From Escherichia coli (GTDB lineage Bacteria; Pseudomonadota; Gammaproteobacteria; Enterobacterales; Enterobacteriaceae): DNA of 64,000 bases. The notes under the pieces were generated by a model. The model was not told where the DNA came from, did not search any database, and saw only the letters and a list, made by a program, of their open reading frames with translations. Of this stretch, positions 14,517-61,227 are shown in pieces. Within the stretch, counting starts at the first letter, position 1; the number at the start of each line of letters is the position of its first letter. The position numbers were made by a program, and so were the translations under genes. The stretch lies in assembly GCF_024502345.1 (NCBI RefSeq), contig NZ_JALDNN010000001.1; one strand, 5' to 3'.

Positions 14517-15782
14517 ATGGCACTGACTGACGCAAAAATCCGGGCTGCAAAGCCCACTGACAAGGCTTATAAACTCACTGACGGGGCCGGCATGTTCCTG
14601 CTGGTTCATCCTAATGGTTCCCGTTACTGGCGTCTCCGTTATCGTATTCTGGGTAAGGAGAAAACCCTGGCACTTGGTGTGTATCCGGAAGTTTCTCTCT
14701 CCGAAGCTCGTACAAAACGGGATGAGGCCCGAAAACTGATTTCGGAGGGGGTTGACCCTTGCGAACAGAAAAGAGCTAAAAAAGTAGTCCCTGATTTACA
14801 ACTCTCTTTTGAACATATTGCACGACGCTGGCATGCCAGTAATAAACAATGGGCACAATCACACAGCGATAAAGTACTCAAAAGCCTCGAGACACACGTT
14901 TTCCCCTTTATCGGCAACCGGGATATCACAACACTCAGTACCCCGGACCTGCTTATCCCTGTTCGTGCTGCAGAAGCTAAACAAATTTATGAAATCGCCA
15001 GTCGTCTGCAGCAAAGAATATCTGCTGTAATGCGTTATGCCGTACAGTCTGGCATCATCAGATATAACCCGGCTCTGGATATGGCTGGTGCATTGACCAC
15101 GGTAAAACGCCAGCATCGCCCTGCTCTGGATCTTTCACGCCTGCCTGAACTTCTGTCGCGTATTGACGGTTATAAAGGCCAGCCTGTCACCCGACTGGCA
15201 GTTATGCTGAATTTACTGGTTTTTATTCGTTCCAGTGAACTCAGATATGCCCGCTGGTCTGAAATTGATATTGACAATGCCATGTGGACTATTCCAGCCG
15301 AACGCGAACCTCTGCCAGGCGTAAAATTTTCATACCGGGGCTCCAAGATGCGAACACCACATCTTGTGCCACTCAGCCAACAGGCTGTAGCCATACTGGC
15401 AGAACTTCAGACATGGGCAGGTGAAAATGGTCTGATCTTTACGGGAGCACATGACCCACGTAAACCAATCAGTGAAAACACCGTAAATAAAGCCCTGAGG
15501 GTTATGGGGTATGACACAACCCAGGATGTCTGTGGTCATGGATTCCGGGCGATGGCATGTAGTGCATTAATAGAATCAGGTTTGTGGTCCCGCGATGCTG
15601 TGGAACGCCAGATGAGCCATCAGGAGCGTAATGGTGTACGTGCTGCGTATATCCATAAAGCCGAACATCTGGAAGAACGTCGACTTATGCTACAGTGGTG
15701 GGCCGATTTTCTGGATGCAAACAGAGAAAGATTTATCAGTCCATTTGAATATGCAAAGATTAATAATCCATTAAAACAATAA
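14517..15782 (+). CDS. int: P4-type tyrosine integrase (tRNA-Phe island integrase)
   Basis: N-terminus MALTDAKIRAAKPTDKAYKLTDGAGMFLLVHPNGSRYWRLRY is typical. The C-terminal catalytic region contains HGFR...Y. Confidence 0.9.
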   Translation: MALTDAKIRAAKPTDKAYKLTDGAGMFLLVHPNGSRYWRLRYRILGKEKTLALGVYPEVSLSEARTKRDEARKLISEGVDPCEQKRAKKVVPDLQLSFEHIARRWHASNKQWAQSHSDKVLKSLETHVFPFIGNRDITTLSTPDLLIPVRAAEAKQIYEIASRLQQRISAVMRYAVQSGIIRYNPALDMAGALTTVKRQHRPALDLSRLPELLSRIDGYKGQPVTRLAVMLNLLVFIRSSELRYARWSEIDIDNAMWTIPAEREPLPGVKFSYRGSKMRTPHLVPLSQQAVAILAELQTWAGENGLIFTGAHDPRKPISENTVNKALRVMGYDTTQDVCGHGFRAMACSALIESGLWSRDAVERQMSHQERNGVRAAYIHKAEHLEERRLMLQWWADFLDANRERFISPFEYAKINNPLKQ

Positions 15783-15826
15783 TCCTCCCGGGAAAATGCC
15801 CGGGAACCACCCGGGGATTATTTTTT
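15783..15826 (+). terminator. probable terminator after int
   Basis: CCCGGG-rich hairpin (AATCCTCCCGGG...CCCGGGGATT) followed by T6. Confidence 0.55.
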
Positions 15827-15950
15827 GTTAAAAAAGGCAAAACGATATTAACTGATGTATTAAATGTTTACCGGATTGCTCCCTGCAGGTGGATTATCAG
15901 AATCCGCAGTTATTCGTTATTTATATATATTCAATAAAAAGAAACATCAT

Positions 15951-50174: not shown

Positions 50175-50277
50175 CACACCACAGCTTAACCCAATAGCGA
50201 CCACACAAAAAAGCCATGCTCCCACAGGAGCATGGCTGTTTTGTTTATGCCGTTAAATCAACAATAAGGAATTTACC

Positions 50278-50675: not shown

Positions 50676-53414
50676 TTACTCAGCTTTAGCAAACTGCTGG
50701 GTGAAGTAAGCCAATGAATTAGCTTCTTTTACGGCATCATGCGGAATGAGTAAGTATTTCCAAGGTTTGCCACCGTGCTGTGCAAGGTATTCACTGGCAT
50801 GACTACACCATTTCACACCACTGCGGGCTTTTTCGGTGACTTCCTCATTCCAACTGCCGTCTTGGTTTTGATGTTGAGTACTTTTAGTTTCAATCATCAA
50901 TACATAGTCGGCGGTTTCAGCAACGAAATCCGGCACGTATTCAGGATGCTCGCTACCGCGTTTGTAGTACATCTTGAATTGGCCTTTGGCAGGCTTAAAC
51001 CACTTCTCGCAGTCGCGTTCTAAAATCACCGCAAAACGGCGCTCAGTGTCTGAATCAAACTTTTGCAATGGGTATAGACAACGGCTAAAGCCGCCAAAGA
51101 GCATTTGTTTGATGCGACTGACATCGCGTACTGTATCACGGTAGCTTTGCACCGGCTGGTCTTGCGCTATGGTGTAAGCGCAGTCACGTAAGGTACTAAA
51201 GCCACTGCGTACATCGACGACGTACTCGGTTGCTTCTTCAAAGAAGTGGTTGTTCAGTTGCGCATGAATTAACTTCGCAATCGCATCACTCTGGTTTTGC
51301 AGAATGTTCTCAACCACATCGTCGTCGTTTTCAGCGGCCAGTGTATTGACAGCTTGAGTGGCTAGGTCAAACAAAAGTTCAGCTTGCTCGTCGTAAGGAA
51401 TATCGTCGTAATCGAACAGCTTCTTCAAAATATAGTTTTGTTTCACCGGCTCGTAGTTGCCCGAATCGCCTTCGCCACGAATGGTTTGGTGATTGTCTTG
51501 CAGGCTTTGTTGAATCAGAGTTCGGTCGATAGGTTTTAAACCTTTAATGGCAGCAATGTCCAAATCGAACGGGTGATAGCCGGTACGTACTTCACCTGAT
51601 GGTGAAACAATAATACGCGGAATATCTATGGTGTTATCCACCGTGAGCTGGGTGACTTGCTCAACAATCGCCGCAATATCCACCGATTCTTCAGTAAATA
51701 GCTCCCGTTGCTCTTGGGTTAACTGAGCTTTTACTTGTTCGGTGATCTGTGCTTTTACCTCAGTCGTTAACAATGCTTTGCTGGTCGGCGCATCGGTAGG
51801 GCGTGTTTGATATTGCTTGATCACGTCCAATGCAGCGCGGGCAACGGTTTGTTGGTTAGGCGTGGTATAAGTGGCTTTAGGTTCTTGTACCTCACGGTTA
51901 CCGTCTGCACCGGTTGCGGTTACACCTGAACCAGTCAGTTGCTGCTCTAGGTTCGATTTAACCTGCACACTTTGTTTGGTTACATCGTCTTCTGGGCGAT
52001 CTAATACGCGTGTTTTCAGGCGCAGTGGGTTATTCGGGTCGTTAGCCTCATCAACAATTTCTTGGAATTTGTCGTGCGCAACAATGCTCAGCGTATCGAC
52101 GGCTTCAACACCTGTACGTTTGCCATAAGGTAAACGCAAACCACGGCCAATTGACTGTTCAATTAGGGTTCTGGCGTTGGCTGCACGTAGTGGCACAATG
52201 GTGTACAGGTTAGTAACGTCCCAACCTTCTTTCAGCATGTTAACGTGAATGACGATCTCGGTTGGCTCATCGACATGCTCAACATTGAGCAGTGCTTGAA
52301 TAGTTTCTTCTTCTTTTTTACTGCTATCCACTTGAATGACTTTGCCACGGTAGCGGCCGTCAAACACTGTTTCAAGTTTGGTTAAAAGCTCTGCTGCATG
52401 CGTGGTATCACGGGCAATCACCAACATAAAAGGCTTAACTAACTTAGCATCGTTTTCATGTGCATAAGTGATTAAATCCACCTTGGTTTGCTCATGTAAA
52501 CGAATACCGTCCATTAACTTAATGGTTTCTAGTTCGTCTTTATCATATTGGCTGGCATCAAAGTTACGCTGAGTAACAACGGCAGGCTCTTTAACAAAAC
52601 CATCATCCATGGCACAGGCCAATGGGTAATCAATCACCACATTTTTAAAGTGCACAGGGCCACGACTTGATTCGGTAAATGGTGTGGCCGTTAGCTCTAA
52701 TGCGAATAGTGGATTAAGCTCATTGAGCGCACGCATACCGGCATCGGCACGATAGCGATGCGATTCGTCCATCAGCAGCACTAAGTCAGGTAAGTTCGAT
52801 AGATACTCAAAGTAGCTTTCGCCTAGGGTTTCCGCTAAACGCTTAATACGCGGGGCTTTGCCTCCACGTACTTCGGTGTTAATTTTCGCGATGTTAAACA
52901 CATTGATCCGAACCGAACCAAATAGATCGCCCATGACTTGTGCGCCGCGGCTCTCATAGTTATCACCGGTGATCACTTCTGGCGGTGCTAGCACAAAATC
53001 GGTAATGCCTTTAAACACGTACTTCGGTGAGGCGGGCGAGAAATCGCTGATCAGCTTTTCATAAATAGTCAGGTTAGGTGCCAACACAAAATAATTGCGA
53101 ATGCCATGTACCTGATACAAATAGGTAATAAACGCCCCCATCAAACGGGTTTTACCTACACCTGTTGCCAAGGCAAAACACAGTGAAGGAAAGTCACGTT
53201 CAAAATCGCTGAGCTTAGGAAACTGCGCTTTTAAGGTTTCTAATAGCTCCGGCACATCGCGTTTTGGGTTCAGTAGTTTGTGCTCAGAAGCACTAATCGC
53301 CACTGCCAACGCACGCAGCGAATCTTGCTGCGGCTGGCGTAAGCTTAAACGGCCAATAATATTATTAATGGCACGTAATTGGTCGGGTTTTAAGCTTGAT
53401 AAATCCATGGTCAT
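50676..53414 (-). CDS. res: Type III restriction enzyme Res subunit (SF2 helicase plus C-terminal PD-ExK nuclease)
   Basis: ATGVGKT, MDESHRY, TATP and C-terminal PDF...IETK. Confidence 0.85.
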   Translation of the reverse strand: MTMDLSSLKPDQLRAINNIIGRLSLRQPQQDSLRALAVAISASEHKLLNPKRDVPELLETLKAQFPKLSDFERDFPSLCFALATGVGKTRLMGAFITYLYQVHGIRNYFVLAPNLTIYEKLISDFSPASPKYVFKGITDFVLAPPEVITGDNYESRGAQVMGDLFGSVRINVFNIAKINTEVRGGKAPRIKRLAETLGESYFEYLSNLPDLVLLMDESHRYRADAGMRALNELNPLFALELTATPFTESSRGPVHFKNVVIDYPLACAMDDGFVKEPAVVTQRNFDASQYDKDELETIKLMDGIRLHEQTKVDLITYAHENDAKLVKPFMLVIARDTTHAAELLTKLETVFDGRYRGKVIQVDSSKKEEETIQALLNVEHVDEPTEIVIHVNMLKEGWDVTNLYTIVPLRAANARTLIEQSIGRGLRLPYGKRTGVEAVDTLSIVAHDKFQEIVDEANDPNNPLRLKTRVLDRPEDDVTKQSVQVKSNLEQQLTGSGVTATGADGNREVQEPKATYTTPNQQTVARAALDVIKQYQTRPTDAPTSKALLTTEVKAQITEQVKAQLTQEQRELFTEESVDIAAIVEQVTQLTVDNTIDIPRIIVSPSGEVRTGYHPFDLDIAAIKGLKPIDRTLIQQSLQDNHQTIRGEGDSGNYEPVKQNYILKKLFDYDDIPYDEQAELLFDLATQAVNTLAAENDDDVVENILQNQSDAIAKLIHAQLNNHFFEEATEYVVDVRSGFSTLRDCAYTIAQDQPVQSYRDTVRDVSRIKQMLFGGFSRCLYPLQKFDSDTERRFAVILERDCEKWFKPAKGQFKMYYKRGSEHPEYVPDFVAETADYVLMIETKSTQHQNQDGSWNEEVTEKARSGVKWCSHASEYLAQHGGKPWKYLLIPHDAVKEANSLAYFTQQFAKAE

Positions 53415-53435: not shown

Positions 53436-55142
53436 TTAATCTTGCGCTGCATCGTCATCGGCAGACGCATCGTCAGTTAGGTTTGCCACGTTTAACGAAT
53501 AATCGTCCTGACCAAATTGGCACTTGTCTAAAATGGCTTTTGGCAGTTTTTTCAAGGTTAAATTGGTAAAACGACCTGGCTCGCAGCGAAATGCACCACA
53601 CATAACCAGTAAAGTTCGGTCACTGCCAACTTCTTCTGACAGCGCTTCTAATTTATCTACCGATAAGCTTTGTGTGGTGACATAAATATGATCCGTCTCG
53701 GTTGAATAACCGTGATCCCACCAATTCACTTCCGATGGCGCATAGGTAAAACCTTCCAGCTTACAAACGGCTTCGGCGAGCATTTCTGGGTTGTACTCTT
53801 TATTGATCACTTCCAAGCCAAACTTATCTTTCACAATTAAGGTCGGGGCAAGTTTGTAATAGCGGAAGCCACCGCCACCTTGCCAGTTTACAGACTTAGA
53901 AATACCACCTTGATCTTCGCCATCAATCACTTTTTGCAAGCGCGGGATAATATGGGTATGACAATGATCACCTAGCTCGACCGAGATCCAACGTCTTTTC
54001 ATCTTGTGAGCTACAGCAGCAGTAGTTCCCGAACCACCGAATGAATCAAAGACTAAATCGCCTTCTCGCGTACACATTTCGAAAATCCGCTTCAAAAGCG
54101 CTTCGGGTTTTTTTCCATTTTTGAAACTAACGCCGCCTTCATTTGCTATTCCATTCCAACTAATGTCAGTCCAAACATCAGTTATTAGTTCAGCAGGTTG
54201 CATCTCACCGTCAATTTCCAAAAGCCTATTGGAGTAAAAGACCATTTGCCTACCATTTGCGATATAAAAGCCTTCGACATCCTCATTTGGATGTACATAA
54301 ACCTTATCCCTATCTTTCTTTGACTTCTCGATAGTTTCTTTTCTCTTTATTTTAGCACCACCACCAATTGCAACGGATTGAAATACACGTTCTGCATTAT
54401 CAATTGCGAATTGTGCTAATTCATCATCAAATGTATCAGGCAGTTTTTTCTTGGCTTCTTTTGTATCTTTATAGCCATTGGCCTTTGCAAACGCATCGGC
54501 AATACCGCACCACGTCCAACTTTTATAATGGTCATCTGGGTTTAATAGATATTTGTTATATCCCGTATCATATCCTTTAGGTATATAGATTTTGTTAAGC
54601 GGTTTCTGGGTGCGATCTTTTGCGTATACAAGCAAAAAGTTTACTGTGGAGAAAACTGTGGCCCCTGTTGCCTTAAAGCCTGAAGGGTCATTTGTGGTCA
54701 TCGATATGGTATTTAACTGATTTGCACGACCAAAAATCTCGTCCATCAAAACTTTTAAATAAGCCATTTCGCAGTCATCTAAGTGAACGAATATTACTCC
54801 ATCATCACTTAGTAGATTACGAATTATTTCTAACCTATCCCTCATTAAGCCCAGCCAAATGGAATGCTCCAGACCATCATCATAGTGCTCAAAAGCACTT
54901 CCGGTATTGAATGGTGGGTCTATGTAAACACACTTCACTTTGCCTGCATATTCTTGCTCTAGCGCCTTCAATGCCAATAAGTTATCGCCAAAAATCAGTT
55001 TATTATCAAAAATATCGTTTTCGGTCACTTTTTGGCTGGCGTGATAAGACTTGCTCGGGTCTTCTAACAAAATGCGCGGCTCTAACTTTTTGCGCTCGTT
55101 TTTGCCTATCCAGGTCAGTTCTAATTTGGTTTTGCTCATCAT
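53436..55142 (-). CDS. mod: Type III-style beta-class N6-adenine DNA methyltransferase (Mod)
   Basis: YIDPPFNTG (motif IV) precedes FDSFGGSGTTAAVA (motif I). Sits immediately upstream of res. Confidence 0.85.
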   Translation of the reverse strand: MMSKTKLELTWIGKNERKKLEPRILLEDPSKSYHASQKVTENDIFDNKLIFGDNLLALKALEQEYAGKVKCVYIDPPFNTGSAFEHYDDGLEHSIWLGLMRDRLEIIRNLLSDDGVIFVHLDDCEMAYLKVLMDEIFGRANQLNTISMTTNDPSGFKATGATVFSTVNFLLVYAKDRTQKPLNKIYIPKGYDTGYNKYLLNPDDHYKSWTWCGIADAFAKANGYKDTKEAKKKLPDTFDDELAQFAIDNAERVFQSVAIGGGAKIKRKETIEKSKKDRDKVYVHPNEDVEGFYIANGRQMVFYSNRLLEIDGEMQPAELITDVWTDISWNGIANEGGVSFKNGKKPEALLKRIFEMCTREGDLVFDSFGGSGTTAAVAHKMKRRWISVELGDHCHTHIIPRLQKVIDGEDQGGISKSVNWQGGGGFRYYKLAPTLIVKDKFGLEVINKEYNPEMLAEAVCKLEGFTYAPSEVNWWDHGYSTETDHIYVTTQSLSVDKLEALSEEVGSDRTLLVMCGAFRCEPGRFTNLTLKKLPKAILDKCQFGQDDYSLNVANLTDDASADDDAAQD

Positions 55143-55196: not shown

Positions 55197-57062
55197 CTAC
55201 GCAGGTTGTGCTTGGCGATTACTCGCTTGGGTGTTTTGCCCTTGTCGGCGTTGCGCTTGCTCGGCTAAGTAACTGAATAAATTCTGGTTGTGTGGGTCGT
55301 TCGCTTGAAGGCGTTCTTGTTTTGCTACAACTGCCGGGCTTTCTGCCAAGTTTAAATGGCTAATCCACACCGTTTGCATTAAACGTGCGGTATCGCCCAA
55401 GCGTTTGAAGTATGCGTGCGGCGCACTGCCTAATACTAATGCCGTAAAACTATCAAAAAATTGCTGACGAAGTTCATCAAAAGCGTGGCTGATTAATCTT
55501 TTAAATGCCGCTTGCTCGGTAATCTCAGGAGCCGTAATAGCGCCTTCAAACTGCGCCATTAATAGCGTGGTTATGCAGTAAGTAAAATGTCGATATACCA
55601 GTTTTTCTGGGCTTGGACTACTGCGCTCTGCGTTTGTACATAAGACTTGAATAGCCAGATAGCAGTTCACCGCGTTAATGGCGACGGCCCCCTGTAAATC
55701 TGTACTAAAAACGGCTTGGTACTCGGCACTTTCTTGGTTAGTGAATTTGCTTGGCTCTACTTTTAGCTGATAAGGCACGCGTACATCACCGTGCATACAG
55801 GCCAATGCTTTGGCCAAGGTGTCGATAGTAATGCTGCGAATACCCGCTGCTGCGCTTTGTTGTGGGCGGTAGAGATATTCAACACCAAACATTTTCATCT
55901 CTTGGCGCAAGCGTTCTTGGGTATCATCCAGCGCGGCAAAGTTGGCTAAATCGACCGGGTTTTGCAGGTTACGCGCTTTGGTTACTTGTTTGTGAAATGC
56001 ATCGTTACCCGTGTTGATAATGGTTACCATCACTTGAGCTTGGCTGATGTCTGCATTTGGGTTTTCACGCATAAACTGTGCAGCACTAGCAATGGTTTGT
56101 GCACCGTTAACGACGGACAGGCCATCGACTGCAACATGCTTGCTACCTGTGTGGCCTCTAATATTCCCTTTTGGTTTTACTGCATTGCCAACCAGAGTAA
56201 TGCCATTGTTAAGATAAATAAAATTTTCCGGCTCATGTAAAAGGGTGTCTTTAATCGCCCTATTTACCCCACGTCTGCCAGCACCAATAAAATAGCGAAT
56301 ATTTTTCTCGTAAAGTTTACGGTCATGAGTAGTGTGCAAGGCAATTAAATCGGTTAGCTTGGCGATACCAAATACGACTTTTCGTGGTTGTTCTTGCACT
56401 CGGAACTTATATACAGCGACACGCTCGTTTACCGTATCAACCGCATGTTCACTGCGAAGAGCCTGCTCAACATCGGTGGCGGTGTATTCTTGATATTCAG
56501 GTGCGATTTGCTCTTCACCTTCATCAATCAGCTCTTGGATCGCTGGTTGTAGGTAGTTTTGTGCTTGTATGGTAATGCCATTACCTGTGTATGCGACAAG
56601 CAGTTGAATTCTTTCGCACTCGTCTAATGCGGCTTCAATATTTGCTTGAAGGTTTTGAACATTTTGATTAAAGCGGTGAAATTGCTTGTTTAAAAGTAAC
56701 TTTACACCCTCAATAAAAGCCTGTGCTTCGCCCAATTGGAATTGCGCATCTTCCTTCATTTTTGACTGTACTAAGTACAGAGTCTGATCAGCTTCGTGAT
56801 AATAAATTGCATCAATACCATGGTCTTCATAGTCGTCCACCACAGCTTTTGCTGCGGTCACTACGTCTAAATCGAATTTTTGCTGTAGTACGAATGCGCT
56901 AAAAGCCCTGGAAATTTGCTTTTTAGGTTTATCTTCTCGCCCACCTTGCCCAAGCAATGGCGGTAAATGCGGCACAAAACGCTGCTGTAGCAGTTCTTTT
57001 AATAGGGTAAGAAATTGTGGTTGTAATGCTGCCAAGTGAGTTGTCCTTATTTTTATTGCCAA
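55197..57062 (-). CDS. AIPR (abortive infection phage resistance) family protein
   Basis: [17 protein letters not shown]...NNGITLV...VVNGAQT core. The N-terminus GIDAIYY...LYLVQSK is nuclease-like. An apparent TTG start overlaps the Abi_2 stop. Confidence 0.75.
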
Positions 57063-57982
57063 ATTGGCCGCGCTTGCCAGTCGGCTGGAAAGCCCATGCG
57101 GTCAATGTCTATTTGGTGATGATTTATCAATTGGATGAGTCGTTGCTTCCAGTGATGTTCACCACTGATCACATCCATGAGGTAGCCCAACATCACCAAG
57201 GTGTTATAAATTTTTCGTAAACGCCGGTCGCTATCGGGCAGGTTTTGCAAGCTTTGAATCAGTGCCGGTTCACCATGGCGTGGCAGTACCGTGGTTTTAA
57301 TAAAATCACGGTTCCATAGCCTAGAATGATGGGCACTTAAATTGCGCACTAGCGACAAATGCTCACAGAATGAGGTAAGAGTTTTTTCATCTAGGCCGTA
57401 GCTTTTGCTTATTACCTGGCGGTCGGCACGCAGCTTGATATTGCTGTACCAACAGGAAAGTTGCCCCATGGTTAACAGCTCAACACAGGCCCAAATAGGG
57501 GGTAGTGGCTCTTGATATTTTTGCGTAAGGTGCTTGATGAACTCTTCACGACTGCACTTTACCTCACCCGTGAGTTTGCCAAGGCTACTGGCGTATTCTA
57601 ATAAATCACCAAAGAGCTCTGGTTTTAAATGAGGGTGCGCGGTTTGGTATTTTTGGCTCAACTGATACGCAATTTGTGTGCGTAATGACACCTCAAAACG
57701 CTCGATGGCATCTAGCACTAACAAACGTAGTTCACGGTCGAAAACATATAGGCTTAGGACTTGGTCAAACTGAGTACCTGTGATAAACGTATGACTGGCA
57801 TGATCTTGCTCATAGGGCAAACAATAAGCCGCAAAACGATAGTAGTTCAGCTGTGCTAAGTAAAACTCAGCTTTCGGGACATCACTGATCACTAGGCCAC
57901 GTTGTTGCAACAAGCGTACTTGATCGCTAAAGCTTGTAGGGGGCTTGGTAAAAGCGACTTTAGGGACTGGTTTGCGGCTCAT
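57053..57982 (-). CDS. Abi_2 (AbiD/AbiF-like) abortive-infection family protein
   Basis: [10 protein letters not shown]...[16 protein letters not shown]...[10 protein letters not shown] is the Abi_2 pattern. The ATG at 57982 follows GGGAGG. Confidence 0.75.
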
Positions 57983-58086
57983 TTGACCTCCCATGCAACA
58001 GAAGATCGAATTTTGCGGGCCCCAGAAACGAGTAACCCCTCACAGGGCGCTGATCTGACGGGTAGCGGGAGGGGTGTTGTTGCAGT

Positions 58087-58114
58087 GATCATAGCCCCAA
58101 ACTGAAAAAAGTCA
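58087..58114 (-). promoter_or_regulatory. candidate sigma70 promoter for the Abi_2-AIPR pair
   Basis: The minus strand reads TTGACT-16 nt-TATGAT in the 157-nt gap after the SNF2 gene. Confidence 0.45.
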
Positions 58115-58139
58115 ATGCTGGCGTTGAAATTGATTGTCA

Positions 58140-61034
58140 TCATTGAACCGTCCACCCAATGGTAAATAGGGTCTCTTGGCTGGTTTTTTTATTCAGTTTG
58201 CCTTCTAAGCTTTCAATCAGCTGTTCGCGCTTTTCGTCCACTTCATCTTGTTTATCAAACAGTTCACGGCGGCTTTTATTGCGCTGACTTTCTAACTGGC
58301 GCTGCTGTTTTTGCAGGGCAAGTTTCTCTTCCAGGGTTGGAGCTATTTTGGCTTCGCGGCGTACTTGCTTGATTTGCTTATCAAGCTCTTTTATAGATTG
58401 TTCAAGCCCTTCTTTTAAATCGTCTGCCCAAGAATCTAACTTGTTTACCTCTTGCTCGAAGAAGCTGAGATTACGATCGTTAACTTGCTTTTCGATGCCT
58501 AGTCTCGACTGCTGTAACGCATGCTGCAGCGCATATTGATAGCCAGGATATAAGGCGGCAAGTTCTTGCTCACTTACTTCACTTTGCACACAGGCACTAA
58601 GCTGCATCAGCTTTTGCACGACTTCACTTGGTAGCGGATGACCATGTTCATCTTGCGCGGCGAACAATAAATGGTCTTCGCTACGCTCCAATGATTCGAC
58701 ACTAAATTTTTGTAGGCTTAGTACACCTGACAAACCCACTAAGGGTTCTAGCATACTGATTTTTGTTTGGTGGTTGCTGTAATCAAAAATTACGCTGGCA
58801 ATGGGTAATTCACGTTGAAGCGCGTTGCTGATCACCCATTCACCCAGCGGGTGGGTGATACGATACACATGGGCATTGGCTAGTTTACCGGTTTCAATAC
58901 TGCCGCTTTGCTGTCCTCGGCGTACAAGTTGGTAGCTACCTGTAGGAGCCTGATTGATACTTTGATTAAGCGTAAAACTATGGTTGCTTGGGTCAATGTC
59001 TGCGATAGCTGCAAGTTCATGCGTACTGAGTTGCCAGAACCAACGGCCTACTTTATCGAGGCGTTGCTGCGCGGCATCTAGCTGAATTTTGAGTAAGTCG
59101 TGAATATCTTCATCGAAATTTTCCAGCAGCAGTTGCTGGGTCTCGCGCATTTTTTGGTTGATGTCGGCTTCTAGCTCTTTTTGCAATTGATCAAAAGCTG
59201 CTTCTATTTCCGCCGGTTGCCGACAAGTCTCGTATATATTTTGGATGCGTTTTTCAAAATCAATACCAGATTCAATGCTGCCTAGCACATCGTCCGATGC
59301 ACCAAACACGCCATCGAACAGATGGAATTTTTCAGTCAGTAACTCTAAAACACGCTGATCGGCTTTGTTGGCTTCGTTGAGGAAGTTGATCACCACAACA
59401 TCAAATTGCTGCCCATAGCGGTGACAACGGCCAATACGTTGCTCTACTCGTTGTGGGTTCCATGGTAAGTCATAGTTAATAAGTAACGAACAGAACTGTA
59501 AGTTAACCCCTTCTGCAGCCGCTTCGGTTGCGATCATAACTTCGGCATGATGGCGGAAGTAATCAATTAGGGCAGTACGGCGGTCAATTTGCGGTGAACC
59601 ACTCACCTTATCACTACCTTGGTTTTCAGCTAACCACTGCTGATAAACTTTGGTTGCTTCTGGATGGTTATTGCTGCCACTAAAGGTGACTAATTTATCA
59701 GCAAAGCCATTCGCCTCGAGGAAACGAGCTAGGTATTCTTGCGTGCGCTTCGATTCGGTAAAAATAATGACTTTACGTGGCGCCCCCATTTCCTCCATTT
59801 TGGCAAACCCTTGATTAAGCGCCGTTAGCAAGGCTTGGGTTTTACTGTCGGTGGTAATGGATTTAGCCTGCTCGATATAATGCTCAAGCTCGGCTATTTC
59901 AGCATTGAGTAACTCAAAGTCAATATCACTCTCAGGGGTATTGCTTTGTGTTTCTTCTACATACTCGCTGTACTCTTCTCCTAAATCATCACTCTCAACA
60001 AGCTCACTGATAATATCGAGGTCCGATTTAGCCTGTACTTTCAAGTCAACCAATCGGCGCTTTATAGTTTCGAGTGTGTTGAGCACTGCGTGCGAACTAG
60101 ATGCTAATAGCTTTCTCAGTATAAGGCCGGTTAAATGACGTTGGCTCTTGGGTAGTGCATAGCTCTCGTCCTTTTCCAATAAGGCACTAATACTTTCGTA
60201 AAGTGCCATCTCAGCATTAGAGGGTGTAAACGGTACGGTGAGTGTTTGACGTTGGGTATAGCGGACGTATTCGAGTACATCTTTGCGCAAGGTACGCTGA
60301 ATAAACCCGGTAAGTCGTTTCTTTAAATGCCCTAGCGCACTTTCGTTATTGACAAAGTGTTGTTTGAAGCTTCGCTCATCGCCGAAGATTTGATCGTCGA
60401 TAATGGTTGAAAGTCCATACAATTCCATGAGCGAGTTTTGTAAGGGTGTTGCAGTAAGTAATAGCTTTTTACTGCCATCTAATGCGCGGCGTAGCGTTTG
60501 ACCCATTTTATTGCTGCTACGATGTGCATTACGTAGCTTGTGCGCTTCGTCGATGACGACAATATCCCATGGCTCTAGCATTAGCTGCGTTTCCATTCTC
60601 GCAGCATAGTGATAGGACATAATAGAAACGCAGTGATTAGCTAGCGGGTTAGTTTGACCATTGTTAACACTAATGCGCCACGTTTTTGCATCAAGCACTT
60701 GCGTTGGTAAATTAAACTTATCGCCCAATTCCTGCGCCCACTGGCGTCGCAATGACGCCGGGCAGATGATCAATATGCGGCGTTTACGCTCTGCCCAATA
60801 CTGTGACAGTACTAAGCCTGCTTCAATAGTTTTCCCTAAGCCCACTTCATCAGCGAGTACAACACCTTTGCTTAACGGGTTGTTGAGCGCAAAAAGTGCC
60901 GCATGAATTTGGTGCGGATTGAGATCAACACTGGCATCAAAAAGAGATTGAGACAATTTATCAACGCCATTTTCAGCGTGGCGAATGGTTAATTCCTGCG
61001 CAAAGTATTTTGCTTGATAATCAGTTATTACCAT
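58140..61034 (-). CDS. SNF2-family helicase (964 aa) with a long coiled-coil-rich C-terminal extension
   Basis: LADEVGLGKT, VVIDEAHKLRN, LLLTATPLQNS, QRIGRCHRYGQ. ORF 58140-61115 trimmed to the ATG at 61034 (MVITDYQAKYF). Confidence 0.85.
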   Translation of the reverse strand: MVITDYQAKYFAQELTIRHAENGVDKLSQSLFDASVDLNPHQIHAALFALNNPLSKGVVLADEVGLGKTIEAGLVLSQYWAERKRRILIICPASLRRQWAQELGDKFNLPTQVLDAKTWRISVNNGQTNPLANHCVSIMSYHYAARMETQLMLEPWDIVVIDEAHKLRNAHRSSNKMGQTLRRALDGSKKLLLTATPLQNSLMELYGLSTIIDDQIFGDERSFKQHFVNNESALGHLKKRLTGFIQRTLRKDVLEYVRYTQRQTLTVPFTPSNAEMALYESISALLEKDESYALPKSQRHLTGLILRKLLASSSHAVLNTLETIKRRLVDLKVQAKSDLDIISELVESDDLGEEYSEYVEETQSNTPESDIDFELLNAEIAELEHYIEQAKSITTDSKTQALLTALNQGFAKMEEMGAPRKVIIFTESKRTQEYLARFLEANGFADKLVTFSGSNNHPEATKVYQQWLAENQGSDKVSGSPQIDRRTALIDYFRHHAEVMIATEAAAEGVNLQFCSLLINYDLPWNPQRVEQRIGRCHRYGQQFDVVVINFLNEANKADQRVLELLTEKFHLFDGVFGASDDVLGSIESGIDFEKRIQNIYETCRQPAEIEAAFDQLQKELEADINQKMRETQQLLLENFDEDIHDLLKIQLDAAQQRLDKVGRWFWQLSTHELAAIADIDPSNHSFTLNQSINQAPTGSYQLVRRGQQSGSIETGKLANAHVYRITHPLGEWVISNALQRELPIASVIFDYSNHQTKISMLEPLVGLSGVLSLQKFSVESLERSEDHLLFAAQDEHGHPLPSEVVQKLMQLSACVQSEVSEQELAALYPGYQYALQHALQQSRLGIEKQVNDRNLSFFEQEVNKLDSWADDLKEGLEQSIKELDKQIKQVRREAKIAPTLEEKLALQKQQRQLESQRNKSRRELFDKQDEVDEKREQLIESLEGKLNKKTSQETLFTIGWTVQ

Positions 61035-61227
61035 CCAACACCCCTTTTCCTTGAGCTGCTTGCGTACTGATCCATTCTTCAAGATCGGATTGTTTAAAGC
61101 GCCAAGCATTGCCAACTTTAAAAGCAGGAATTTTATGTACCGCTGCTAGACGGTAAACAGTTCTCTCATTTACCTTCAAATACTCAGCTACTTCTTTAAT
61201 TGTCAGAACGGTATCAGTCATTTTCAC
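61021..61227 (-). CDS. excisionase-type (HTH_17/MerR-like) DNA-binding protein
   Basis: LTIKEVAEYLKVNERTVYRLAAVHKIPAFKVGNAWRFKQSDLEEWI. Confidence 0.8.
   Translation of the reverse strand: MKMTDTVLTIKEVAEYLKVNERTVYRLAAVHKIPAFKVGNAWRFKQSDLEEWISTQAAQGKGVLDGNN

Follow-up and report, generated by a model that had tools for sequence, protein, structure and literature searches.

The window analysed here, 64,000 nt of Escherichia coli DNA (contig NZ_JALDNN010000001.1, assembly GCF_024502345.1), carries a single tight row of minus-strand genes coding for a helix-turn-helix (HTH) protein, an SNF2-family helicase, an Abi_2 protein, an AIPR protein and the Mod and Res subunits of a type III-like restriction-modification (R-M) system. 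The same DNA occurs in strain HCP6S3_I2, with 100% identity over 55197-58200, and in strain CFSAN004176, with 99.9% identity across the whole operon. A first-pass annotation of the sequence had recognised the Abi_2 and AIPR genes as a pair nested within the R-M-type operon, as they are, and proposed that they overlap and form a translationally coupled module with its own promoter. We favour another reading, to which we give about three chances in four: the locus would hold two independent defence elements in one variable slot, an AbiF-type type III toxin-antitoxin cassette that includes Abi_2, and an AIPR gene resident in an operon of the order HTH-SNF2-slot-Mod-Res. The features are, in the direction of transcription:

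61021..61221, minus strand: small excisionase-type HTH gene at the operon head (RefSeq name mads1; PGAP annotation), overlapping the SNF2 start by 14 nt
58140..61034, minus strand: SNF2-family helicase, DrmD-like, 964 amino acids (extent of the open reading frame (ORF) 58140-61115)
58088..58115, minus strand: sigma-70-type promoter of the RNA/Abi_2 cassette (TTGACT, 16 nt, TATGAT)
58026..58083, minus strand: conserved 58-nt hairpin RNA, AbiFr-like, putative antitoxin (covariance model R1, 79.4 bits, E 7e-22)
57053..57982, minus strand: Abi_2 (AbiD/AbiF family) HEPN protein, 309 amino acids, putative RNase toxin; ribosome-binding site GGGAGG at 57992-57987
57036..57052, minus strand: 17-nt non-coding spacer between Abi_2 (TAA stop at 57055-57053) and AIPR, with AAGGA at 57048-57044
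55197..57035, minus strand: AIPR (AbiU1-like) protein, 612 amino acids, TTG start; putative restriction-endonuclease-like fold at the N-terminus, then the AIPR domain
53436..55142, minus strand: Mod, type III-like N6-adenine DNA methyltransferase (Pfam N6_N4_Mtase 3.1e-40; PADLOC MTase_III 944 bits, full length)
50676..53414, minus strand: Res, type III-like restriction/helicase subunit (Pfam ResIII 2.1e-20; PADLOC REase_III 634 bits)

The succession of Mod and Res, with profile matches to methyltransferase and ResIII helicase domains, is that of a type III R-M system, and a bidirectional terminator-like site at 50212-50237 closes the operon after Res.

The Abi_2 protein and the RNA upstream of its gene

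Abi_2 (Pfam Abi_2 2.4e-51 on the ORF 57053-57994; PADLOC AbiD 3.4e-71) is homologous over its full length to an AbiF toxin of known structure. Its profile finds PDB entry 8VZ6 with an E-value of 3.5e-72, residues 7-309 aligning to residues 3-300 with 34.5% identity; 8VZ6 is the HEPN toxin PbAbiF solved together with its non-coding RNA antitoxin AbiFr (PMC12737573). The HEPN motif RNxxxH is present as RNLSAH, which aligns to LTRNSCCHH of PbAbiF, and its residues R213, N214 and H218 are invariant among 18 relatives. The Abi_2 start at 57982, taken by the first-pass annotation and used by PGAP, is the conserved one: it is kept in a solo relative (L094), in which the in-frame ATG at 57994 is not.

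The 157-nt gap between SNF2 and Abi_2 is the largest of the operon, the remaining ones measuring 17, 54 and 21 nt. The elements previously picked out in it are all found on the coding strand: TTGACT (58115-58110) and TATGAT (58093-58088) with a 16-nt spacer, the GGGAGG ahead of ATG 57982, and the two stem arms ACCCCTC (58075-58069) and GAGGGGT (58041-58035). TTGACT-16-TATGAT is the best promoter-like site in 14 kb (10/12 matches). Such sites are no more frequent in the region than in shuffled sequence (14 against an expected 20.1), so that the argument for a promoter comes from positional conservation and not from site count. Upstream of Abi_2 relatives with unrelated surroundings, a site of the form TTGACT/TTGATA/TTGCAT, 16-17 nt, TATGAT/TATAAT/TATTAT/TATACT is kept at the same position, in agreement with the earlier proposal that the gap holds a promoter serving Abi_2. 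The transcript start is predicted near 58081.

About 8 nt after the promoter-like site lies a conserved stretch of about 60 nt, present upstream of every Abi_2 relative examined, with the sequence CAACAAYACCCCTCCCGCTWCCCGT.AG.TCAGCGC.C.G.GAGGGGTTACTC.TTTCTGG. The predicted RNA has an outer helix of 7 bp, P1 (58075-58069 with 58041-58035), an inner helix of 4 bp, P2 (58067-58064 with 58051-58048), a conserved 12-nt loop (58063-58052), a conserved 6-nt bulge (58047-58042) and a U-rich tail extending to about 58020. The GC-rich stem seen by the first-pass annotation is part of this putative RNA antitoxin, namely its outer helix. The covariance model R1, built from an alignment made on sequence only, has its sole significant match in the window at 58083-58026; a weak match at 15773-15828 (14.8 bits, E 0.9) was taken as chance. 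Copies absent from the seed are recovered by R1 exactly upstream of Abi_2 (L197 with 33 bits, L186 and L187 with 28 bits).

Covariation supports both helices. Among 21 copies aligned on sequence alone, pairing holds for 93% of cells, and six pairs (15 cells) are changed on both sides, with compensatory changes in P1 and in P2, where GC is replaced by AU and UA by CG. None of 500 shuffles matched the observed percentage paired, the number of cells with two-sided change or the covariation score, and controls in which the register was slid gave 38-56% of cells paired. One copy (L020) has a UUCG hairpin inserted in the loop and retains P1 and P2. In viral-contig relatives of Abi_2 at 30-49% identity the layout is the same with different helix sequences, the outer helix occurring as ACCCCCCA/TGGGGGGT, ACTCACCC/GGGTGAGT, GCTTACCC/GGGTAAGC, CCCGGC/GCCGGG or ACCGACCC/GGGTCGGT. 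The loop ACCCGUNAGAUC and the bulge CCCUGU are kept all the way from Gammaproteobacteria to contigs whose promoters are of Bacteroidota type, while P1 varies freely in sequence. Two RNA types, GCUA...GCGCCCUGU and GCUU...GCGCACCGC, track two Abi_2 subclades (window/Oceanospirillum versus Nitrincola/Halioxenophilus), a pattern that co-evolution of RNA and protein would be expected to produce.

Promoter, RNA and Abi_2 are found together in all contexts examined: in the SNF2-Mod slot with AIPR (window, L008, L014-L017, L020), in the slot without AIPR (L006, L096, L181), solo (L094, L095), on plasmids (L182, L183) and on viral contigs (L185-L222). Each time a conserved structured RNA lies directly upstream of Abi_2 on the same strand under its own promoter, as in AbiF systems. 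The RNA is nearly constant among relatives whose Abi_2 proteins are just 60-88% identical and is more conserved than the protein, as was reported for the sequence upstream of the lactococcal AbiD/F genes (PMC13064643). The solo copies are in Oceanospirillum (88% identity), between housekeeping genes, and in Oceanisphaera (84%), within a flagellar cluster; further relatives stand alone on plasmids (L182, L183). Slot copies without AIPR are found in Halioxenophilus, in four E. coli genomes and on conjugative Salmonella plasmids. A census of 5,426 complete E. coli genomes gave the operon in 29: 19 with Abi_2 and AIPR, five with an internal deletion in AIPR, four of the Abi_2-only variant and one truncated. 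In the variant (L006, E. coli CUPF09; L181, Salmonella IncI/IncF plasmid pSa44-CIP-CRO) the order is SNF2, an IS1 element or an IS256-family transposase, RNA, Abi_2 and Mod-Res, with no AIPR. The Abi_2 of these variant operons, on the conjugative Salmonella plasmids and the four E. coli chromosomes, is 67% identical and split by a frameshift.

The RNA has no family in Rfam 15, as searched in the window gap and in the L198 leader (both with E up to 10), in 18 Abi_2 loci (at gathering score) and in seven phage loci (E up to 0.01); the sole low-scoring matches (snoRNA, Xist, PK-repZ) are evident chance. The identification of the stem as an SNF2 terminator, a REP-like repeat or an integron attC site was rejected, the element travelling with Abi_2 and having about 33 occurrences in the 5,426 E. 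coli genomes.

Could the hairpin be merely a cis-acting attenuator or terminator, ending the SNF2 transcript or lowering abi_2 expression, with no antitoxin role? It is GC-rich, is followed by a U-rich tract and lies between promoter and gene; copies that stand alone behind a promoter of their own, known from an E. coli island and from viral contigs, end in longer U-runs; and the C. difficile RNA also acts in cis by premature termination (PMC12373285). A plain terminator, however, has no need of the loop ACCCGUNAGAUC and the bulge CCCUGU that are conserved while P1 varies, and the free-standing RNA of phage tRNA arrays has nothing there to attenuate. Since, moreover, Abi_2 is the full-length homologue of an AbiF solved with its non-coding RNA, we regard a purely attenuating hairpin as improbable. 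The U-tract itself differs between copies: it is weak, UCGUUUCUGG, in those linked to Abi_2, and forms UUUUU runs in orphans with their own promoter.

AIPR and the slot between SNF2 and Mod

The idea of translational coupling was based on an Abi_2 stop that overlaps the AIPR start, but no such overlap exists. TTG 57062 is merely the longest possible ORF start (55197-57062); AIPR starts at TTG 57035, because its homologues of 608-612 amino acids have the N-terminus MAALQPQF encoded from there, PGAP places the start at 57035, 1-nt deletions between both TTGs break the frame in two close relatives (L015, L016), and in loci devoid of Abi_2 the bases upstream of this TTG are the 3' end of the SNF2 gene. 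Abi_2 and AIPR are therefore 17 nt apart (57052-57036). The first in-frame Met of AIPR is indeed far downstream, about 93 codons in, where about 100 had been given.

The protein matches Pfam AIPR (PF10592, 1.3e-38) at residues 251-539 and PADLOC AbiU (1.4e-37) at residues 47-535 of the 621-residue ORF translation, against positions 21-507 of 537 of the profile, the architecture of AIPR/AbiU1 proteins. Fold search of its N-terminus points to PD-(D/E)xK enzymes and predicts a nuclease-like fold resembling FokI; Makarova et al. 2012 term the AIPR N-terminus HEPN (PMC3506569), and a FokI-like nuclease fold is reported for AbiUi (PMC13064643). The protein is a mosaic. Between the window and Catenovulum (L017), operons with 97-100% identity in SNF2 and Res, AIPR is just 40-60% identical over residues 50-300 (window 56135-56885) and 88-100% identical over residues 300-612; comparison with Enterobacter and Alteromonas divides the protein in the same way. 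The N-terminal ~250 residues would thus exist in two or more diverged, exchangeable forms on a near-identical operon backbone.

The closest AIPR relatives lack Abi_2 and stand in HTH-SNF2-AIPR-Mod-Res operons of Vibrio cholerae (93%), Enterobacter bugandensis (72%) and Marinobacter nauticus (59%), and in such Abi_2-less relatives the SNF2 stop is 0-17 nt from the AIPR start. When the AIPR alignment was scanned against one genome per species, 19 loci were obtained at identities of at least 48%. Mod directly follows AIPR in all 19; Res is found in all 15 that are long enough, either next to Mod or separated from it by a few kb (L024, L029, L030); SNF2 is immediately upstream of AIPR in most. Abi_2 lies between SNF2 and AIPR in six loci and is absent from the other 13. 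AIPR identity declines in parallel with that of SNF2 and Res (93/86, 72/85, 59/71, 52/50, 40/49 and 27/46%), which together with the tight junctions suggests that AIPR has long been co-inherited with the operon and is its older resident.

The edges of the Abi_2 cassette are visible in the sequence. On the left side, similarity to the solo Abi_2 copies begins at the -35 hexamer. At the right junction (window 57036-57062 compared with L001 9970-10001), the window has TGGCAAT in common with the 3' end of SNF2 in relatives lacking Abi_2, and past the Abi_2 stop the former SNF2 tail and ribosome-binding site (AAAATAAGGA.A) can still be made out, suggesting that the cassette was inserted via microhomology. 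In Nitrincola the insertion occupies precisely the space from the SNF2 stop to the AIPR ATG; in its nearest Abi_2-less relatives these two codons overlap. Given this left edge, this right junction and the Nitrincola insertion, the mobile unit would extend roughly over 58115-57053 and would have entered the SNF2/AIPR junction more than once.

The same junction is highly variable in metagenomic loci retrieved with SNF2. Some have nothing between SNF2 and Mod (L127, L128, L130, L150, L171). Others (L025, L032, L111, L114, L123-L126, L131, L133, L135, L136, L140) have defence genes of unrelated kinds there: PHP-SMC/AAA_21 ATPases, RhuM, OLD-family nucleases, IrrE/M78-like HTH peptidases, GmrSD, an Mrr-like nuclease, DUF2130 with SIR2 and HerA, or an AAA protein with subtilase and SIR2. 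A PHP-SMC ATPase, Schlafen/AlbA_2 and Fic are found between Mod and Res (L024, L029, L030). The adjacency of Abi_2 and AIPR is best read as that of two tenants of one hot spot.

That Abi_2 and AIPR would nevertheless form a functional two-gene module, a second-line arm of the R-M system whose members act together or cross-regulate each other, is an idea that we consider unlikely. The genes are adjacent and co-oriented with 17 nt between them, yet they do not overlap and the spacer tolerates indels (L015, L016). Their arrangement is known in E. coli, Proteus, Catenovulum and two metagenome-assembled genomes and, in a diverged form, in Nitrincola (68% identity for Abi_2, 61% for AIPR, 74% for SNF2), but those of E. 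coli, Proteus and Catenovulum represent a single operon that has spread horizontally (SNF2 97-99% identical) and do not count as independent. The Abi_2 proteins of the two lineages belong to different subclades that each include AIPR-less members: the Nitrincola protein clusters with AIPR-less slot copies (73-75%), that of the window with solo copies (84-89%). A single ancestral Abi_2-AIPR pair followed by repeated loss of Abi_2 was judged less parsimonious in view of these subclades and of the tight SNF2/AIPR junctions. A precedent for a pair exists in lactococcal AbiU, first described as an AIPR-like AbiUi with a HEPN AbiUii (PMC13064643). The survey of adjacency goes against the proposed module: 13 of the 19 close AIPR loci have no Abi_2, and both genes together were found in none of 61 distant AIPR loci, 77 SNF2-seeded metagenomic loci and 67 Abi_2-seeded viral loci. 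Abi_2 also occurs in the slot without AIPR and solo at 84-88% identity, and it already has a conserved partner, the RNA.

The converse idea, that AIPR is just interchangeable cargo of the slot and the locus a pile-up of three unrelated systems (R-M, AIPR and AbiF), could appeal to SNF2-seeded loci with many other occupants or none before Mod, to AIPR/AbiU1 acting alone in Lactococcus (PMC13064643) and to the AIPR-less operons of the E. coli variant and Halioxenophilus, but is very improbable in the face of AIPR identities that track SNF2 and Res, of Mod-Res always following immediately, of 0-17 nt junctions with SNF2 and of a link between AIPR and type III R-M noted for years (PMC2292703, PMC3506569).

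Comparison with known systems

With Abi_2 and AIPR taken as independent, the cassette of the window most likely works, by analogy, as an AbiF-type type III toxin-antitoxin, because of the homology of Abi_2 to 8VZ6, the HEPN motif and a layout like the published one. The premise that Abi_2 proteins are single-gene systems is outdated, AbiD/F systems being now described as a protein with an upstream RNA antitoxin (PMC12373285, PMC13064643). A 2026 review lists AbiD, AbiD1 and AbiF as protein-plus-RNA systems (PMC13064643). In C. difficile a SigA promoter drives a non-coding RNA with a terminator, read-through continues into abiF, and the RNA, in cis as well as in trans, neutralises the toxin (PMC12373285). 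PbAbiF-AbiFr was described by Zilberzwige-Tal et al. 2025, as cited in PMC12373285 and PMC12737573.

The mechanism that we infer, from transcript ends to RNA-protein binding, toxicity and trigger, would be the following. The sigma-70 promoter would drive a hairpin RNA of about 58 nt ending in a weak U-rich tract, and read-through would continue into the Abi_2 gene to produce the HEPN RNase toxin. The RNA would bind the Abi_2 dimer and block its active site, by analogy with PbAbiF/AbiFr and C. difficile AbiF/RCd22. If infection stopped transcription by the host or made the RNA unstable, the RNase would be released, with arrest of the cell as the outcome. AIPR would be translated from its own TTG, 17 nt beyond the Abi_2 stop, the cassette having probably entered behind the SNF2 stop and ahead of the AIPR start.

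The window cassette shares with PbAbiF-AbiFr and C. difficile AbiFCd-RCd22 a full-length homologous Abi_2-family HEPN protein with RNxxxH, a housekeeping-sigma promoter, a structured non-coding RNA hairpin with a U-tract and the abi gene on the same transcript, an RNA more conserved than the protein, and residence in mobile elements and defence islands. It differs in having a single 58-nt hairpin with an inner 4-bp helix, where RCd22 has two RF03085 motifs of 36-37 nt, and a leader of about 100 nt, compared with 168 nt in C. difficile. Its host is E. coli, it lies within an SNF2/type III R-M operon, and its clade is known from sequence alone.

Several points weigh against this assignment. We infer promoter activity, RNA ends and read-through alike, and the window RNA is likened to AbiFr by its layout and its partner protein, not by RNA sequence. 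Its 3' tract, UUACUCGUUUCUGG, is a poor terminator. The whole gap folds no better than shuffled sequence (z +1.64), so that the signal is in the conserved hairpin and not in overall stability, and the helices are nearly invariant within the gammaproteobacterial clade, the covariation being supplied by more distant relatives. The Rfam abiF motif, RF03085, has no match with E up to 10 in window 57900-58250, nor in the L198 leader (E up to 10), nor at gathering score in 18 Abi_2 loci, which would make the RNA a different or much diverged structure. Finally, Abi_2 and AIPR are adjacent in two diverged lineages, the E. coli and Nitrincola types, so that some functional interplay may exist; the lactococcal AbiUi/AbiUii genes, AIPR-like beside HEPN, are a precedent (PMC13064643).

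Abortive-infection genes nested in R-M loci are familiar from PrrC in the EcoprrI type Ic locus and from the rlo genes of Campylobacter type I loci. The likeness lies in an RNase-type suicide gene placed between genes of restriction subunits, a second line behind restriction of the sort that the first-pass annotation suggested. PrrC, however, is restrained by the R-M proteins themselves, whereas Abi_2 has its own putative RNA antitoxin and promoter and occurs unchanged outside R-M loci, which therefore gives no indication of dependence on an R-M protein. ToxI of ToxIN is a tandem repeat array processed by the toxin, and pseudo-ToxI is a phage decoy acting by RNA mimicry. As in ToxIN, the putative RNA antitoxin of the window lies just upstream of the gene for a putative RNase toxin and has free-standing copies in phages; unlike the ToxI array, it is a single hairpin, and its phage copies are often within tRNA arrays.

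AIPR/AbiU1 genes have been noted in R-M operons, type III especially, since 2008-2012 (PMC2292703, PMC3506569). The window AIPR is likewise inside a type III-like R-M operon and matches the AbiU profile over nearly its full length, but its operon has the specific five-gene order HTH-SNF2-AIPR-Mod-Res.

The DrmD-like SNF2 protein accompanied by an adenine methyltransferase recalls DISARM class 1, and the MAD1-like HTH at the operon head recalls MADS. The SNF2 gene matches Pfam SNF2-rel_dom (2e-34) and Helicase_C, PADLOC DrmD with 693 bits and NCBIfam DISARM_DrmD_b with 697 bits, under its cut-off of 950; the HTH gene matches NCBIfam antiphage_MADS1 with 82 bits (cut-off 80) and also the excisionase family TIGR01764. 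The operon is without DrmA (helicase), DrmB (DUF1998) and DrmC (PLD), no DUF1998 or PLD domain is found by Pfam among its proteins, and among these the HTH alone matches a MADS model, with no other component of the eight-gene mad1-mad8 set, to which a kinase and an ATPase belong. Membership in both systems was rejected, the HTH clearing its cut-off by 2 bits and the DrmD model scoring below its own.

The result is for the most part corrective: the partner of Abi_2 would be an RNA, not AIPR, and the supposed internal promoter that of a mobile toxin/RNA-antitoxin cassette whose RNA was missed by annotation pipelines and by Rfam 15. E. coli would gain a tractable native AbiF-type system that is directly testable. 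The junction after SNF2, a hot spot for AIPR, Abi_2, OLD-family nucleases, GmrSD, RhuM, SIR2-HerA and PHP-SMC ATPases, could serve as a bait site for new defence genes. Most worth following is the unannotated RNA family with its phage orphans.

Free-standing RNA copies and the surroundings of the operon

A search of IMG/VR with the RNA core CGCTNCCCRTNAGANCAGCG found at least 120 viral contigs, of which 79 loci were fetched (L252-L330; also L177-L180). All 79 match the RNA model, and 77 have no Abi_2 gene, the remaining two having one. Among 62 distinct viral copies, in an alignment fitted to the model, P1 covaries at all seven pairs, with 97.5% of cells paired and 119 cells changed on both sides. 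Seventeen viral copies directly adjoin a tRNA gene on the same strand with a fixed spacing, and another 11 are within 300 nt of one; in L319, for example, the RNA (1007-1060) stands between tRNAs at 934-1006 and 1062-1134. Processing of the tRNAs would release the 17 fused copies. Other orphans, located in the nin region of lambdoid phages, have a promoter of their own and a better U-tract.

We put forward, tentatively and at somewhat less than even odds, that these sequences form a large RNA family outside Rfam 15 whose phage orphans act as decoy antitoxins disarming Abi_2/AbiF, more widespread than pseudo-ToxI, and that the SNF2-Mod junction is a recurrent docking site at which self-contained cassettes of this sort build up. 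If they are decoys, the orphan phage RNAs would be a common RNA-based form of anti-defence and would account for part of the non-tRNA spacers that interrupt the tRNA arrays of phages. In the searchable literature no description of free-standing copies of the RNA was found.

Orphans also occur outside phages. The copy at L007 8000-8057 (E. coli E14, NZ_CP121149) is 96.5% identical to that of the window and that at L184 5000-5057 (Vibrio cidicii plasmid CP035920) 95%; neither is followed by Abi_2, and both have the common upstream flank CACGAGATGGTACGAATA.... The E14 copy follows a DEAD-box helicase gene in a type I R-M (defence) island.

Mod is 60-71% identical in most operons, even where the other genes are 97-100% identical: in HCP6S3_I2, which has an Abi_2/AIPR region 100% identical to the window, Mod is just 69% identical, and it is close in L016 (96%) and L017 (98%) alone. 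This divergence suggests swapping of the target-recognition domain.

The operon is located in a CP4-57-like integrative island, with an ECs1377-family gene, an AlpA-type HTH, YfjI, YagK/YfjJ and inovirus Gp2-family genes upstream, and ardA and integrase remnants downstream of Res. The V. cholerae copy of the operon has a P4-type integrase next to it, beside rpoD/dnaG.

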